Shown: in pieces, positions 15,001-24,000 of the stretch
Layout of the letters: each line of letters opens with the position of its first letter
Position numbering within the stretch: the stretch's first letter is position 1
NCBI GenBank assembly: GCA_963793425.1
Contig: CAWCAG010000009.1
Location: 800,001 to 864,000, forward strand
Reading direction: 5' to 3'
Length of the DNA: 64,000 nt
Origin: an uncultured cyanobacterium
GTDB lineage: Bacteria; Cyanobacteriota; Cyanobacteriia; Cyanobacteriales; CAWCAG01
Position numbers: made by a program

Positions 15001-18000
15001 AATAAGTATTACTTCAGGAGAATATTTGGTTTTAGATTACCGTTTAGAAGAACGGCACTACTGGGTAAAATGGCCTGATAATAGCAAGGGAAATCGTTAT
15101 GAGCATTTTATTTTTGAAGCAGATGCTGAAATTATCCCGACTGAGAATTGATCAATCCTAAGTAATGCAATACAAACCCCAGTTTAATCCTTGTTACTCT
15201 ATTGAAACTATAGAACCAAATCAGGTCTTCTTCTTATCTGAAAGAGAAAAAGCTTGGTTGTGTAATCGCCTATCTTATGATTTAGCTAATTTAATCGATG
15301 GCGATCGCACTAATGACGAAATTATTGATACCCTACAACAGTTACTACTACAAGACCCAAAAACTTTACAGCAAGCCAGTACTTTCTTCCAAGAAGTTCT
15401 TAATGTGAGTCTGCAAGCTCAATCTGCCTTATTGCAAATGCAACAGCAAGGCTATCTTGTTGAAAAAGATAACTCTATTCCATCTCACTTAAGCATCTTC
15501 TGCCATCATCTCAATATTGCTCCTAACCTAGCCCAGCAACGCTTGCAAACGATTAAAGTTGCTGTGAAAACTTGCGGTTCAGTTGCGACTGAGGACTTTG
15601 TTGCTACCCTTGAGTCTTTACAAATTCAAGTAGCAGAAGAAGGTGATTTAACAGTAGTCTTAACCGATAACTATCTCAATCCTCAGCTAGATAAATTTAA
15701 CCAACAATCCCTCGAATCTAAATCTCCCTGGTTGCTGGTTAAACCAGTAGGGACAATAGTTTGGCTCGGCCCCTTATTTCACCCCAACAAAACTGGCTGT
15801 TGGCAATGCTTAGCCAAGCGTCTGCGAGATAATCGACCGATTGAAGGGTTTATAGAAAGACAAAAAGAAACTTCTTCTCCTTTAACGACTCCTTTAGGCT
15901 TCTTACCATCTACAGTGCAAACTGCATTGGGAATGGCTGCTACAGAAGTGTTCAAATGGATTATTCAAGGAGAAAATCAACAATTAGAAAATAACTTACT
16001 TACTTACGATAATATTACCCTGCAAACCCAACATCATTCTTGGGTTAAGCGTCCTCAATGTTCTAGCTGTGGAGAACAAAAAAATAGCTTACTCAAACCT
16101 ATTGTTTTACAACATCGTCAGAAAAACTTCACTGCTGACGGAGGACATCGCATCTGTTCACCCCAAGAAACTCTTAGGAAATACCAACATCATATTAGCC
16201 CCATTACTGGCATTGTACGGGAACTAAACAAGATTCCTGTCAACAGCTTAACTCACAACTACATCGCTAAACATCATTTCTTAAGTACTTTCGATAATGT
16301 AGCTAGTTTGCAGCAAAACTTGGGGGGTAGAAGTGCAGGGAAAGGTAGGACTAACTCTCAAGCAATGGCTAGCGGTTTTTGTGAAGCAATTGAACGCTAT
16401 TCTGGGGTATTTCAAGGGGATGAAGTTAGGCAAAAAGGTAGTTATCTGCAAATGGGAGACAAAGCTATACATCCCAACGCTTGTATGAACTTTAGTCAAC
16501 GGCAATATCACCAGAGAAAACAATGGAATCTTGAATGTCAAGGCTGGTTTCAAAAAGTACCTGAACCCTTTGAGGAAGATAGAGTTATTGATTGGACTCC
16601 GGTTTGGTCTTTAACTCACCAGGAATTTAAGTATTTGCCCACAGCGTACTGTTATTATGGCTATCAAACAGACTATCAAACAGACTGTTGGGCTGATTCT
16701 AATGGTTGTGCCACGGGAAATACCATTGAAGAAGCGATTCTGCAAGGATTTATGGAATTAGTGGAGCGGGATGCTGTTGCTTTGTGGTGGTATAACTGTC
16801 TGCAAAAACCCCAAGTAGATTTAGACAGTTTTGATGAGCCTTACTTTCAAAGTCTGAAGCAATATTATCAAACAATTAACCGAGAAATTTGGGTTTTAGA
16901 TATTACCAGTGATTTGCACATTCCTGTCTTTGCTGCGATTAGTCGGAAAAAGGATAGCAAGGTAGAAAATATTGTCTTGGGCTATGGCGCTCATTTTGAT
17001 GCCAAGATTGCCATTAGTCGGGCTTTGACTGAAGTTAACCAAATTTTACCTAACGTCTTATTTACCAAAGCAGATGGTAGTACGAATTATCCCCCATCGG
17101 CGGATACCTTGGCTGTGGACTGGTGGCAAACTGCCACTGTAGCCGATCAATCTTATTTAGTCCCAGATGAGCGAATTGCGGTCAAAGTTAGCAATGATTA
17201 TCCTCAAATGGCCAGTGACGATTTACTTGAAGATGTCAAGCTTTGTCAGAAAATGGTTGAGAAAAACGGTATGGAAATGCTGGTTTTAGACCAAACTCGT
17301 GCTGATATTGGTTTAAGAGTTGCTAAGGTAGTTGTTCCGGGAATGCGCCATATGTGGCAAAGGTTAGCACCCGGAAGGCTGTATGAGGTTCCGGTGAAAA
17401 TGGGTTGGTTGCTAAAACCATTAGCCCAAGAGCAACTCAATTCTTTTCCGATGTGGATGTAAACATCTCCTTTCTCACGAATGTTATTTTCCATGAGTTT
17501 TTATATGAGTTTTATAGGTTGTTACTTATCAAACCGTGAATAACAATACTGACAAGATAAGCAGGATGTCTATTAAATGAAAAGCCTAGTTTTCTCTCAA
17601 CTCCTTGAATAAGTCAATTCTGCACAAACAGAAATTTAATCAGTTATCAGGAGAAGTAAGCAGATGACCAGCAATCCGAGCCTAGCAACTGTTTCAGCCA
17701 GTAGTATCACTGATATTTCAGCCTTGCCTGGTCTAAAATCCCTTTGGGCTGAAACTCTAGGAGATCCTCGGATTTGCGTAGCGATTCTTGACGGCCCTGT
17801 TGACCAATCCCACCCGTGTTTAGAAAATGCTCAACTAAAAAGACTACCCAGTTTAGTATCAGACCATGCTGGTAAAGGTATTATGTCTGCTCACGGTACT
17901 CATATTACCAGTACAATTTTTGCTCAACCTAGTGGAGACGTTCGTGGTATTGCACCTGAATGTCGCGGTCTGATAATTCCTGTGTTTTCCGACAACGGAA

Positions 18001-21000: not shown

Positions 21001-24000
21001 TTAAGAGTTGCAGTTGACTCTTGCGGCTGTCATATATTTTCTGGAACTTCAATGTCTCAATGTCTAGCAGTTTGCGGCTTAGTATAGAGCCAAAAACAAC
21101 AAAAAGCTTAATCTTTTTGGGTATAAAGAAGGAGAAATAAATGTCGTTGCAGTGTATACAGCAGACTATTAGGCAAGAAATAAAAACTAGAGAAGTTCAA
21201 AGAGAAAGTATAACAGAACGCATATTTAAGCTTTATCTACAAGGACTAAAAAACGGGAAAAACAAAGAAGATAAACAATATGAAACTTTGTTTAACAAAA
21301 TAGATAGTACAGCTCATTGGAAGCAACGTCTTGATAGTTCTCATAGTAAAGAAATGTGGCTTAAGAAACTTGAGAGGATAGCAGAAAAACTTGAATTTCA
21401 AATAACTAAAAAAGAGAGTAAAGCACTTGAGAAAGTAGTCTGCCAGCTTAATCACAATTGGGGTGAGCATTGGGAAAGAGGACGGATCTGGGCATAAGTC
21501 AAAGTTGAAATATTGTTCTTCAAGTGTGATTGCTCAGGACAAATTAATTGCAGATTATGCTCCAAGAATATAGGATTATTGATGCAGACTCCCATGTGGT
21601 TGAACCTCTAATTATGTGGGGTGAGTATCTCGAACCAGAATTCCAAAAGTTTGCACCTTCAATAGATATGAAAATGCAAGGGGAAGAGATTGTCGAAAAG
21701 GTGTCTAAGCAAGTTAGCGCTATCGGCAATAGGCAAATGATGCAGGCTCATCCTCATGCTTATTTCCAAGGCTATAGTGTTAAGTCTCACCTGGAAGAAA
21801 TGATAAAGATGGGTGTGGATGTGGCTTTTCTTTATCCAACTTATGGGTTGTGGCTTTGGGCGATAGATTCTATGCAACCGGAAGTTGCGGGGGCTTTTAC
21901 CCGTGCCTATAACAAGTGGTTAAAGTACTTTTGCGGCCATGCTCCAGATAGGTTGCAAGGGGTAGGAGCAATCAATCTGCACGCCCCAGAAACCCTGGTA
22001 GGCCAGTTACATCAGATTGCTGATTTTGGTTGGAAAGCGGTGTTTGTACGTCCCAACCCCATCAAAGGAAGACTGTTGAGTGACTCTGCTTATGAGCCTT
22101 TTTGGACAGAATGCGAACAGTTAGGTATAGCAGTTGGCATTCACGAAGGGACTCACTCTCGTTTGCCCACTACTGGCACAGATAGGTTTAACACTCGCTT
22201 TTCGCTAATGGGGGAGCGCAACAAGGCTTTCTCATCCTGGAAAAAGAGGAGCAATGGGTAATTGAAGCGGAAGGGACGATAGATTCTGAGCAGATTACTT
22301 TAGGGCGATCGCGCCCGATCAACTCTGTAGATACTGACACCCAGATACCAATCCTACCAGTTGCCGTAGTTAACTATGTTATTCGTACTCAAGAAAACGT
22401 CGTTTTAGACAATGCTGCACAAGAAGAACAATTTAGCCGTGATCGCTACATTGTGTCAACTCAACCCAAATCGATTCTCTGTACCCCTTTGTTACATCAA
22501 GGCAAGCTAAGGGGCATCTTATACTTAGAAAACAACTTAACCACAGGGGCATTTACTAGCGATCGCATTGAAACCTTAAGAATTCTCTCTGCCCAAGCTG
22601 CTATTTCCCTGGAAAATGCCCAACTCTACGCCCAACTAGAAGATGCTAACCGCAACCTAGAACAAAGAGTAACACAGCGCACCCAAGAACTCTCCCAAAC
22701 CCTAGAAATCCTCAAAGCTACCCAAGCCGAACTGATCTTTGAAAACGAGTTACTCAGAAGTGCCGAACAACCTTCTAACTTTGACTACCAAGTGGGGGGG
22801 AGTTTGCCCATGGATGCTCCCACCTATGTGGTGCGATCAGCAGATCGTTCCCTCTACAAAGCTTTGCAGCAGGGGCAAGTTTGTTATATTCTTAATCCTC
22901 GGCAGATGGGAAAATCAAGCCTGATGGTGCGGATGATGCACCACCTGAGACATGAAGGGTTTAGCTGCGGGGCCATTGATCTTACCCGCATTGGTAGCGA
23001 AAACATTACTCCTGAGCAATGGTATAAAGGTTTGACGGTAGAATTATGGCGAAGTTTTGGCTTGTTAAGGAAGGTTAATCTGAGAAGTTGGTGGAATGAA
23101 CAAGGGGATATCTCTCCAGTGCAACGGTTAAGCCAATTTATTGAAGAGATTTTGCTGGTTGAAGTTGGTCAAAGCGATGACACTTTGCCGAAAAACCTGA
23201 TTGTTTTTATTGATGAAATTGATAGCTTTTTAAGCTTGAATTTCCCCGTAAATGACTTTTTCGCTCTCATTCGCTCCTGCTATAACCAACGCAGTATTAA
23301 CCCAGAGTATCGGCGTTTAACCTTTGCTCTTTTTGGCGTTGCTACTCCCGGAAATTTAATTACTGAGCAACAAACAACTCCCTTCAACATCGGTCAAACT
23401 ATTCAATTAGAAGGCTTCAAAGAGCATGAGGCACAACCTTTACTGCAAGGATTGGCAGAGAAAGTAACTAATCCGCAAACACTCTTGAAAGAAGTGTTAG
23501 GTTGGACAAACGGCCAGCCTTTTTTAACTCAAAAGCTTTGTAAACTAATCCGTAATGCTTCTTCTCCCATACCCATTAACCAAGAAGCGGCATGGCTTGC
23601 AAATTTGGTGCAGAAGTCGATAATAGAGAATTGGGAATCACAGGATCAACCAGAGCATTTGCAGACAATACGCGATCGCCTTCTCAAAAGTAAGCGATCA
23701 CCTCAGTTACTAGAAATATATCGACAAATTCTGCATCAGGGAGAAGTTATCGCCGTTGATTCTCCAGTAGAAAAAGAACTGCTTTTGTCAGGGTTAGTGA
23801 TCAAGCAACAGGGAGTTTTGAAGATTCATAATCAGATTTATGAATCTATCTTTAGCCGTAGTTGGCTTGAGTATCACCTTCGCTTTGATGCTTAACTGTA
23901 GCGGTTTGCGATCATTTGTTCAATAATTCCAACTCCAACTGGCAGTAGAAGTGACCTCAACCAATTGGGATGACGATTATATTGACAAACTTGATGAGTA

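Follow-up and report, generated by a model that had tools for sequence, protein, structure and literature searches.

A PatG-less, cyanobactin-derived gene cassette inserted beside a stand-alone heterocyclase, with long linear peptides as its predicted products

Introduction

Can a cyanobactin-type locus with only one protease make long linear peptides, and does the heterocyclase gene at its edge take part in making them? We met this question in an uncultured cyanobacterium, in a window of 64,000 nucleotides (the whole stretch of DNA that was analysed; assembly GCA_963793425.1, contig CAWCAG010000009.1, positions 800,001 to 864,000). A first-pass annotation had joined the heterocyclase, the protease, three precursors and PatB into one cluster. 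PMC3877893 gives the minimal cyanobactin gene set as A, G, E, B and C; the window offers A, E, B and a PatC-like gene, and PatG is missing. On balance, we favour the reading that positions 17512-21542 are a self-contained, PatG-less pathway derived from the cyanobactins, which was inserted next to the heterocyclase and would deliver unmodified linear peptides with the heterocyclase uninvolved.

Results and Discussion

The cassette and its genes are as follows.

17512..21542, + strand: PatA-only cassette of about 4.03 kb with protease, E1-E3, PatB and PatC-like gene; limits good to about 5 bases
17664..19868, + strand: subtilisin protease assigned to the PatA type, 734 aa, with Peptidase_S8, PatG_D and PatG_C
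19898..20056, + strand: precursor E1, 52 aa; leader end GVEAS; core GIFDLIRQLPIIRTFARK, 18 aa, net charge +3
20244..20405, + strand: precursor E2, 53 aa; leader end GVEAS; core IPWGLLAGAIPAITSLFN, 18 aa
20567..20746, + strand: precursor E3, 59 aa; leader end AVEAS; core ANWGKIGGIGSAIGAGITGLQALKDWFRGN, 30 aa, net charge +2
20851..21087, + strand: PatB-family protein, 78 aa; TIGR04220 79.7 bits (cut-off 55)
21141..21497, + strand: PatC-like orf118, 118 aa, hydrophilic, C-terminal end ERGRIWA; 54 bp past PatB

Sequence comparison assigns the protease to the PatA type rather than the PatG type, as the first-pass annotation had proposed. It reaches 781.7 bits against TIGR03895 (cut-off 421), and the scores reported earlier against solved chains were reproduced, with 373.7 bits for 4h6w, 339.6 bits for 4h6v and about 194 bits for the PatG chains 4h6x and 4aks. 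The A and G clades of the protease tree each have an SH-aLRT support of 100, and the window protease falls into the A-type clade. D43, H77, N174 and S239, invariant columns of the alignment, are all kept; read from subtilisin, they would be the catalytic triad and the oxyanion residue. The terminal branch of the window protease measures 0.34, compared with a median of 0.07. The genome searched comprises 5.28 Mb in 9 contigs and is 98.62% complete. Only one of its four TIGR03895 matches exceeds the cut-off, there is a single PatG_C match, and both are the A-type gene. The genome's three other S8 proteases score at most 83.7 bits against TIGR03895 and all lack PatG_C, so that the earlier claim of a genome without PatG stands.

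The three tandem precursors, with their shared leader and with cores of 18, 18 and 30 residues, were also found as described before. The leader HMM detects E1, E2 and E3 with E-values of 4.9e-22, 3e-15 and 1.7e-14, and E1, by its place and its leader, is the counterpart of the "type 1" precursor that adjoins the protease in relatives. E2 and E3 are 90% identical in their leader DNA over 69 nt and have different cores; an AAGGAG lies 7 bases 5' of E2, and another 5' of E3. Among 36 aligned precursors the leader motif LPxQxxP(V/I)xR is invariant in the columns P9, Q11, P14 and R17, while the cores vary. In the residues that precede the cleavage site, the leaders of E2 and E3 deviate from the relatives' leaders; this deviation and the long branch of the protease could stem from adaptation or from decay. 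PatA-like enzymes are described in PMC10885120 as cutting after G(L/V)E(A/P)S. With GVEAS, GVEAS and AVEAS, E1-E3 carry the N-terminal recognition sequence of cyanobactins, namely that of an E precursor with conserved leader. GVEAS is the site in 14 of 37 family cores, followed by GVDPS (6), GVDAS (5) and close variants in the remainder. Each window precursor has a single site; four type-1 precursors of relatives have a second one, NVESS, 8 residues past the first. A C-terminal recognition sequence of the AYDG type is absent from all three window precursors, in which the stop codon directly ends the core. The cores hold one or two Ser/Thr each and no Cys, and Ser/Thr is equally present in the cores of relatives without a heterocyclase. 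The only family matches of the window precursors are weak, namely to TIGR04446 (PirE-type; 19.5-20.3 bits, below the curated cut-off of 35) and to DUF5840 (below its cut-off of 25).

From these features we propose that the three prepeptides would be translated, that the PatA-type subtilisin would recognise (G/A)VEAS and cut after the Ser, a site that we infer, and that C-terminal peptides of 18, 18 and 30 residues with free ends would be released. Because the precursors have no C-terminal recognition sequence and the genome has no PatG, neither a second cut nor a ring closure would follow, and we retain the earlier prediction of long linear peptides. Since the genome also lacks the LCM methyltransferase of most relatives (no match to PF04072), modification is most likely absent from the linear products. 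Their sequences range from hydrophobic to amphipathic and are helix-prone, and the peptides are presumably membrane-active. Domain and family profiles found no tailoring gene in the cassette, and an exporter or immunity gene is not recognisable there.

PatB itself, claimed earlier, is indeed present as the ORF 20851-21087; the last ORF, 21141-21497, which had been taken for PatB, is instead PatC-like. PatB has a Cys-rich C-terminal tail that is conserved in relatives and common to the PatA-only family. Its N-terminus resembles the precursor leaders, and the leader HMM matches PatB in 9 family loci (E 5e-8 to 6e-3). orf118 is preceded by an AAGGAG ribosome-binding site, and phmmer returned no homologue of its sequence. 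It carries a C-terminal pattern, G.[IVL]W[ASHGT], that occurs in 48 of the 13,971 ORFs from the protease loci, mostly directly 3' of patB, and in 2 of 11,228 ORFs of the heterocyclase loci. Canonical PatC proteins with this ending score 50-69 bits with TIGR04447; orf118 has no match, though it has the PatC position and the GRIWA ending.

Is the missing PatG a peculiarity of one genome? The window protease belongs to a 16-row clade (SH-aLRT 96), and 15 of 77 protease loci with 10-kb flanks are relatives of the same type. None of the 15 has a second PatA/G protease within the DNA examined. A single PatG_C protein was counted in 10 of the 15 related genomes, a count of lower confidence because most are metagenome bins of unknown completeness. 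An LCM-type (PF04072) methyltransferase stands 3' of the type-2 precursors in 10 of the 15 related loci and is missing from the other 5 within the DNA examined. Seven relatives have a divergent STAND gene, which was not carried along with the window cassette. At E <= 1e-3 the precursor profile matches 215 proteins; all of the matches listed (120 of 215) are "hypothetical" or unnamed and lack a Pfam domain, and the 25 that were fetched, besides E1 of the window, all have the same leader, the same site and a core that runs to the stop. The window shares the traits of the family, that is, the place in the 16-row clade, the adjoining type-1 precursor, the long PatB with Cys-rich tail, the ORF ending in GRIWA and one protease. 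The sequence data thus support a real PatA-only family rather than a single-genome accident. We found no published description of this family.

The flanking genes tell where the cassette came to lie.

10987..12342, + strand: AAA_35 STAND NTPase, flanking; AAA_35 489 bits; the partner usually found upstream of the orphan heterocyclase
15165..17462, + strand: stand-alone PatD-like heterocyclase, flanking and probably outside the pathway; 765 aa, intact; YcaO, E1-like and winged-helix parts
21557..22207, + strand: truncated amidohydrolase, flanking; residues 1-218 of a 361-aa family; tblastn 70% identity; Amidohydro_2
22198..23895, + strand: remnant of a Ser/Thr kinase-AAA_16-GAF-AAA_35 protein (about 1950 aa), flanking; partial GAF and AAA_35

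Using blastn to orphan-heterocyclase loci, we observe about 81% identity over 15164-17511, then a break, and then homology again at 21538-21547. In one such locus (L107) the two break-points fall side by side (12360/12359), and empty insertion sites exist in the relatives G006, G010, G011, G013, G017 and G025. With homology ending at 17511 and starting again at 21538, the 4-kb cassette is an insertion, placed exactly between the heterocyclase and its amidohydrolase partner. Elsewhere nothing occupies this spacer, or it carries unrelated genes (for instance a PIN toxin-antitoxin pair, a glucanase or an amine oxidase), and in relatives 25-400 bp separate the 3' end of the heterocyclase from the amidohydrolase gene. 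Flanking direct repeats or mobility genes that would account for the insertion were not found.

A deletion at about 22200 has in turn disrupted the flanking heterocyclase cluster. Of 67 anchored heterocyclase loci, 49 have the amidohydrolase family, normally 3' of the heterocyclase; the window has the truncated gene of this family, and the deletion junction with the kinase-protein remnant lies at about 22198-22207. For the remnant, tblastn covers residues 1383-1952 of 1952 and 1407-1961 of 1961; the ORF 22453-23895 holds the end of the GAF domain and AAA_35, nothing more. The STAND NTPase upstream is 57% identical to a family-3 protein of the locus L092, and family 3 occurs in 21 of the 67 loci.

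The heterocyclase scores 350.6 bits with YcaO, 272.6 bits with TIGR03604 and 180.8 bits with TIGR03882, and its likeness to MusD, LynD and TruD was recovered as reported (E 6e-210 to 4e-200), with MusD as the best solved match (702.6 bits). Its membership in the cluster, which the first-pass annotation had assumed, was not supported. It falls into a clade of 62 rows (61 other full-length proteins; support 100) that is separate from 6 heterocyclases embedded in clusters. Its orthologues occupy 68 loci (59-85% identity over the best segment), and a PatA/G protease is found within 10 kb in just one of them, L107. The usual neighbours are instead an AAA_35 NTPase, an amidohydrolase, an unknown protein and a kinase-STAND giant or radical-SAM enzyme. 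Conversely, none of the 15 related PatA-only loci has a heterocyclase nearby. The orphan clade, the break-points and the synteny together place the heterocyclase by descent in another conserved locus and not in this cluster. Heterocyclases recognise a leader motif of the LAELSEE type according to PMC5460452. This type of motif is absent from the three window leaders, and genome-wide we found no such precursor, the sole six-frame pattern match lying inside a 327-codon open frame. Of 13 cyanobacterial PatA-only genomes, 7 have an orphan-type heterocyclase (at least 62% identity), and the heterocyclase 3' end turned up in about 10 of 20 relatives at the level of the order; the co-occurrence is therefore at background rate, without enrichment. 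Probably, then, the heterocyclase has no part in the pathway and is a member of a different, neighbouring cluster.

A recruited heterocyclase could nevertheless act in a hybrid pathway, making oxazolines from core Ser/Thr before the PatA cut, so that the linear peptides would bear azolines. The enzyme has kept its full length and all three domains despite the truncation or loss of its own partners. A gap of 201 bp separates it from the protease gene downstream, which is read from the same strand, and co-transcription and co-option may have followed. The one or two Ser/Thr in each core, the unusual E2/E3 leaders and the closeness to MusD, from a linear cyanobactin pathway, would fit as well. 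Against this speak the related loci without any heterocyclase, the stand-alone clade, the clean insertion into a spacer that is elsewhere empty or filled with unrelated cargo, leaders without the LAELSEE-type motif, cores without Cys, Ser/Thr that is just as present in heterocyclase-free relatives, and a co-occurrence at background rate only. We regard such a hybrid as rather unlikely.

Alternatively, the cassette might be a silent, decaying fragment that has lost methyltransferase and regulator and gives no product, which we consider unlikely. The genome is without the methyltransferase of 10 of 15 relatives, the STAND gene of 7 of 15 stayed behind, the protease sits on its long branch, the surrounding locus has suffered a deletion, and promoter-like sites are no commoner than in shuffled sequence. 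Yet none of the six ORFs is interrupted or truncated, the invariant active-site columns of the protease are kept, AAGGAG ribosome-binding sites precede E2, E3 and orf118, the conserved leader and diverged core of E2/E3 are the pattern of precursor genes in use, and the methyltransferase is also missing from 5 of 15 relatives within the DNA examined. Further processing by unlinked enzymes (a second cut, modification of the ends or ring closure without PatG), after which the products would not be plain 18-, 18- and 30-mers, appears quite improbable. The second NVESS site in four relatives suggests stepwise trimming, PMC4663559 and PMC3877893 assign no known role to PatB or PatC, and three other S8 proteases are at hand; the window precursors, however, have one site each, the cassette has no tailoring gene, and those S8 proteins stay at or below 83.7 bits to TIGR03895 and are without PatG_C. 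We thus keep to the self-contained pathway with unmodified linear peptides as its likely products.

Comparison with known systems

The closest known compounds in outline are the aeruginosamides and viridisamide A, which share with the window E-type precursors, a PatA-type protease, PatB, a PatC gene (PatC-like in the window) and a product that is not macrocyclic (predicted for the window). Known linear cyanobactins are described as N-prenylated peptides of 3-5 residues that are C-methylated on a thiazole (PMC4663559), and their clusters as retaining a PatG-type C-terminal protease/oxidase, a heterocyclase and the LAELSEE leader (PMC5460452). The window differs from them by cores of 18-30 residues that run to the stop, by a genome without PatG and by leaders without LAELSEE. 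Muscoride is a linear cyanobactin as well; unlike its MusD, the window heterocyclase sits in a separate, stand-alone clade. Anacyclamides, piricyclamides and prenylagaramides resemble the window in their short leader without heterocyclase recognition motif. These heterocyclase-free cyanobactins have PatG, however, and are macrocycles of 7-20 residues with a conserved Pro (PMC4663559).

Leader-cleaved, unmodified bacteriocins and the NisP-type S8 leader peptidases are like the window in mechanism only. In class II bacteriocins, a dedicated protease removes the leader of a prepeptide and frees a hydrophobic or amphipathic peptide; the leader is of the double-glycine type, and a C39 peptidase-ABC exporter serves it. 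NisP is an S8 leader peptidase (PMC10885120). The window leaders end in EAS and not in the GG of class II bacteriocins, and the protease is a cytoplasmic-type PatA that carries the cyanobactin DUF.

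Results and Discussion

The genes discussed here follow one another on the forward strand.

Genes of the heterocyclase and cassette region (window coordinates)
15165–17462, +: PatD-like heterocyclase, 765 aa (YcaO 350.6 bits, TIGR03604 272.6 bits, TIGR03882 180.8 bits; ThiF-like and winged-helix parts)
17664–19868, +: protease, 734 aa (Peptidase_S8, PatG_D and PatG_C; TIGR03895 781.7 bits, cut-off 421)
19898–20056, +: small ORF E1, leader ending in GVEAS, core GIFDLIRQLPIIRTFARK (18 residues)
20244–20405, +: small ORF E2, leader ending in GVEAS, core IPWGLLAGAIPAITSLFN (18 residues)
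20567–20746, +: small ORF E3, leader ending in AVEAS, core ANWGKIGGIGSAIGAGITGLQALKDWFRGN (30 residues)
20851–21087, +: PatB, 78 aa (TIGR04220 79.7 bits, cut-off 55)
21141–21497, +: orf118, 118 aa, without family match

The leaders of the three precursors E1–E3 share the form (K/M)PKQ(V/T)APIxR, and in all three the stop codon stands directly after the core. E2 and E3 have leader DNA that is 90% identical over 69 bases but different cores, and both, like orf118, carry an AAGGAG ribosome-binding site. The first-pass annotation had placed the genes correctly, but PatB is the 78-aa ORF, while the 118-aa ORF is something else. The GC content stays at 0.38–0.44 through cassette and flanks with no step at either end; 8 promoter-like and 2 terminator-like sites are uninformative against shuffles (9.2 and 3.6). 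The stretch is contained in four DNA runs of one study, and no RNA run is listed as containing it. DUF5840 and TIGR04446 gave only sub-threshold scores with the window precursors and those of four relatives. DUF5840 was rejected as the family of the precursors: 4 of the 12 relatives' peptides tested matched at E < 0.01, all under the cut-off, and the name is absent from the literature searched.

The protease scores far better with the solved N-terminal cyanobactin proteases (4h6w, 373.7 bits; 4h6v, 339.6 bits) than with the PatG macrocyclase chains (about 194 bits), and over the C-terminal half it matches 4uvq, a structure of the PatG DUF (262.8 bits). A tree of 108 S8 domains, drawn from 78 loci and the window (79 sources), separates A-type from G-type enzymes in two clades with an SH-aLRT of 100 each, and the window enzyme belongs to the A clade. 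The invariant columns D43, H77, N174 and S239 are present and would, by analogy with subtilisin, be the catalytic residues. We then find only this gene when the whole genome (5,284,537 bases in 9 contigs, 98.62% complete) is considered: it is the sole PatG_C match and the only one of four TIGR03895 matches above the cut-off, the runner-up reaching 83.7 bits. Because of the protease type and the missing PatG, the earlier observation of a PatG-less cluster with a PatA-type protease stands, with the correction for PatB.

A protease search followed by a protease-alignment search gave 77 loci; 15 of these join the window in a clade of 16 rows (SH-aLRT 96), the PatA-only family. It comprises 13 cyanobacterial loci (L006–L012, L018, L019, L027, L034, L053, L075), with Nostoc, Calothrix, Nostochopsis, Xenococcus, Okeania, Symploca, Microcoleus and Adonisia among the hosts, and two loci from a Pirellulales bin (L015) and a Deltaproteobacteria bin (L016); it spans Nostocales, Oscillatoriales-type and Pleurocapsales-type cyanobacteria plus two non-cyanobacterial bins. 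The common layout combines the protease with a short-cored "type 1" precursor, a long PatB whose tail is Cys-rich, a hydrophilic ORF of low conservation and from one to three "type 2" precursors whose cores span about 14–41 residues. An LCM-family methyltransferase (PF04072) is found in 10/15 loci and a divergently transcribed STAND NTPase upstream in 7/15, layout counts that are minima because some loci are short contigs. PF04072 gave no match in the genome of the window. Within the locus DNA examined, no heterocyclase and no second PatA/G protease occurs in any of the 15 loci. Ten of the 15 whole genomes hold a single PatG_C-bearing protein (G001–G004, G026–G029, G034, G035); the other five (G005, G030–G033) have further PatG_C proteins elsewhere, in at least two of them as an ordinary A and G pair far from the PatA-only locus.

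The leader profile recovered 55 small ORFs in the 16 loci of the clade, weakly including the long PatB proteins. Over an alignment of 36 precursors, leader positions P9, Q11, P14 and R17 are invariant and the cleavage-site residues G31 and S35 at least 90% conserved, while the cores vary. We analyzed the cores of 37 of the 39 strongest matches, leaving out two without a recognisable site. Their length ranges from 12 to 41 residues, with a median of 22. They have no Cys and a net charge of −2 to +3, and many begin with GxxDxL; their helical hydrophobic moment is moderate, with a median of 0.51 for stretches of 11 residues and a median z of 1.6 versus shuffles. Against 5.8 billion proteins, the precursor profile gave 215 matches at E ≤ 1e-3, and the 120 among the matches listed are all "hypothetical" or unnamed and without Pfam domain. 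Of 26 that we retrieved, one was E1 of the window; in every one of the remaining 25 the leader and the site recur and the core extends to the stop.

Two variants of the precursors deserve mention. Seven of the 55 ORFs have Cys-rich cores of about 30–50 residues (L010 14923–15162; L011 16164–16394; L012 6595–6777 and 6826–7038; L019 13339–13590; L015 5312–5512; L016 3865–4140), as if they were disulfide-rich mini-proteins freed by the same protease. Four type-1 precursors (L006 12276–12431; L008 12175–12414; L009 12203–12358; L018 12219–12392) carry two candidate sites ahead of a core of some 10 residues, G(M/I)(E/D/G)AS and, 8 residues past it, NVESS.

The motif M(K/R)LPxQxxPVxR of the precursor leaders also opens the PatB proteins, even canonical ones (window 20851–20890; PatB of L006–L090). 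The leader profile matches the long PatB proteins with E values of 5e-8 to 6e-3, and PatB may be a paralogue of the precursors or share a binding partner with their leaders. The following gene, orf118, begins 54 bp 3′ of PatB and ends in ERGRIWA. Its counterparts in the relatives end in (Q)IGRIWA/S and canonical PatC in PFRRGRIWA/S. Among the 13,971 ORFs of the protease loci, 48 have this C-terminal pattern, mostly right after patB; among the 11,228 of the heterocyclase loci only 2 have it, one of them in the cyanobactin cluster of L107. By position and sequence ending, orf118 clearly resembles PatC and is a candidate member of that family. TIGR04447 gives canonical PatC 50–69 bits and does not match orf118 or the two family members tested; phmmer found no orf118 homologue in any locus retrieved, and the Atlas has it in unnamed clusters only, with a poor model (pLDDT 0.45). 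Due to this likeness of orf118 to PatC, the cassette reads as A, E, B and a C-like gene, which is the cyanobactin "minimal set" A, G, E, B, C, as it appears in passages of PMC3877893, without G.

The heterocyclase has a different history. Our search for its relatives returned 68 loci (59–85% identity over the best segment, 59–82% for full-length ones), and in only one, L107 from Calothrix brevissima NIES-22, does a PatA/G-type protease or PatB lie within 10 kb. Over 67 anchored loci the recurrent neighbours are an upstream AAA_35 STAND NTPase (21/67), a downstream Amidohydro_2 protein with about 361 aa (49/67), a protein of about 345 aa with no known function (45/67) and, next after the latter, a radical-SAM/SPASM protein (14/67) or alternatively a giant protein. 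The giant protein, present in 9/9 loci examined further, has about 1930–1960 aa with Ser/Thr kinase, AAA_16, GAF and AAA_35 domains. In the tree, the window heterocyclase and 61 stand-alone enzymes form one clade with support 100, and six heterocyclases of ordinary cyanobactin clusters fall outside. The 3′ end of the gene is found in about 10/20 order-level relatives. This stand-alone PatD-like heterocyclase locus (L091–L158; window 10987–17462 and 21557–23895) is widespread, and apparently uncharacterised. No precursor peptide was recognised at these loci; small ORFs between heterocyclase and amidohydrolase, considered as the native substrate, were unrelated cargo or absent, and none was identified.

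DNA homology of about 81% to the heterocyclase loci covers 15164–17511, that is 49 bases beyond the stop codon, and resumes at 21538–21547 in the amidohydrolase gene. The two break-points lie side by side in L107 (positions 12360 and 12359), and in G006, G010, G011, G013, G017 and G025 of the 20 relatives the heterocyclase end and the amidohydrolase are only 25–400 bp apart. From these break-points and the short spacer we conclude that the 4.03 kb at about 17512–21542 are an insertion into the heterocyclase–amidohydrolase spacer, holding exactly the protease, E1–E3, PatB and orf118. Elsewhere the spacer is empty or filled with unrelated cargo (a PIN toxin–antitoxin pair, a glucanase, an amine oxidase). 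We found no convincing direct or inverted repeats flanking the insertion. At several loci the final 80–150 bases of the heterocyclase gene, together with the adjoining 3′ flank (window 17360–17513), are repeated downstream after cargo genes (L098 14011–14094 and 16313–16387; L096 7944–8018; L102 13484–13637; L110 9619–9769). These repeats behind cargo suggest that the 3′ end serves repeatedly as an integration site; no such duplicate is present in the window.

The flanking locus has suffered damage of its own. The window amidohydrolase matches only residues 1–218 of 361 and ends at 22207, and from 22198–22207 on the DNA matches residues 1383–1952 (or 1407–1961) of the giant kinase–STAND protein. 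This is a deletion junction that fuses amidohydrolase codon 218 to about codon 1383 of the giant gene, with some 6 kb absent compared to the relatives. Neither the 345-aa protein nor the radical-SAM gene was found anywhere in the window's genome; the upstream AAA_35 gene (10987–12342) was kept. The region is rich in STAND NTPases, with AAA_35 paralogues at 26854–27912 and 10987–12342 (47% and 57% identical, respectively, to the L092 family-3 protein). The same-genus genome G006 has an empty heterocyclase–amidohydrolase junction (contig C8, 110546–111382). Its heterocyclase locus shares about 68% DNA identity with that of the window and copies in other families about 81%, which may reflect paralogy or gene transfer of the locus.

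Could the adjacent heterocyclase have been co-opted for the cassette peptides? We consider this unlikely, even if both are on the same strand with a gap of 201 bp, since no heterocyclase accompanies the 15 related loci. Also in favour of co-option, the enzyme has MusD as its closest solved relative, its gene is intact despite the loss of its own partners, and the leaders of E2 and E3 are unusual. On the other side, passages of PMC5460452 describe a LAELSEE-type motif as the mark of heterocyclase-dependent precursors; none of the leaders of E1–E3 has this motif, and its sole match in the six frames of the genome lies in a 327-codon open frame that is no precursor. Additionally, Cys is absent from all the cores, and Ser and Thr are equally frequent in relatives without the heterocyclase. 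An orphan-type heterocyclase (at least 62% identity) does occur in 7 of the 13 cyanobacterial PatA-only genomes, which is not above the order-level background of about 10/20. The first-pass annotation had counted the heterocyclase into the cluster; in view of the stand-alone clade, the DNA break-points and the family loci, it was most probably wrong on this point.

Passages of PMC10885120 place the cut of PatA-like enzymes behind G(L/V)E(A/P)S. The window protease would correspondingly cut after the Ser of (G/A)VEAS and free three linear peptides of 18, 18 and 30 residues. Since a C-terminal recognition sequence, PatG and a methyltransferase are all missing, these peptides are probably unmodified, and their make-up suggests that they are membrane-active. 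The earlier proposal of long linear, PatG-independent peptides we judge to be right, given that there is no PatG and that the cores run to the stop codon.

One may also speculate that the family is no natural-product pathway but a protease-armed membrane-peptide system, silenced by the leader and switched by a STAND protein; we hold this to be very unlikely. Hydrophobic or amphipathic (in some relatives Cys-rich) peptides would be held inactive by the leader and released by the PatA-type protease, and the divergent STAND NTPase (NB-ARC/NACHT or AAA_35) seen in 7/15 relatives would be the switch. The window cassette would then have landed in a cargo slot of another STAND-rich locus, beside the orphan heterocyclase, and this position could additionally give rise to new hybrid chemistry. 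Such a system would be a small-peptide counterpart of protease-activated pore formers and, if real, would have a role in defence or programmed cell death of filamentous cyanobacteria.

Conclusion

In summary, we return to the reading of the cassette as a pathway to long linear peptides. If they are made, they would represent an overlooked class of gene-encoded linear cyanobacterial peptides, methyl-esterified in most relatives, and would offer a simple setting for studying the functions of PatB, PatC and the protease DUF. Genome miners should be cautious, as any neighbourhood rule would merge the heterocyclase, which belongs to a separate and very common locus, into the cluster.

In practice, cyanobactins are defined by the protease pair A and G. 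The literature searched, which includes passages of PMC4663559, PMC12639078, PMC4603692, PMC10885120, PMC5460452 and PMC3877893, describes neither the PatA-only family nor the stand-alone heterocyclase locus, though earlier surveys may mention such clusters. According to the passages available, known linear cyanobactins measure 3–5 residues, with prenylation and with methylation on a thiazole (PMC4663559), and their clusters retain PatG, the heterocyclase and the LAELSEE leader (PMC5460452); heterocyclase-free cyanobactins likewise retain PatG and are macrocycles of 7–20 residues (PMC4663559). The PatA-only family, with linear cores of 12–41 instead of 3–5 residues, lacks both PatG and the C-terminal recognition features. 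It resembles the cyanobactins only up to the first cut, and from there on works like a leader-cleaved bacteriocin.
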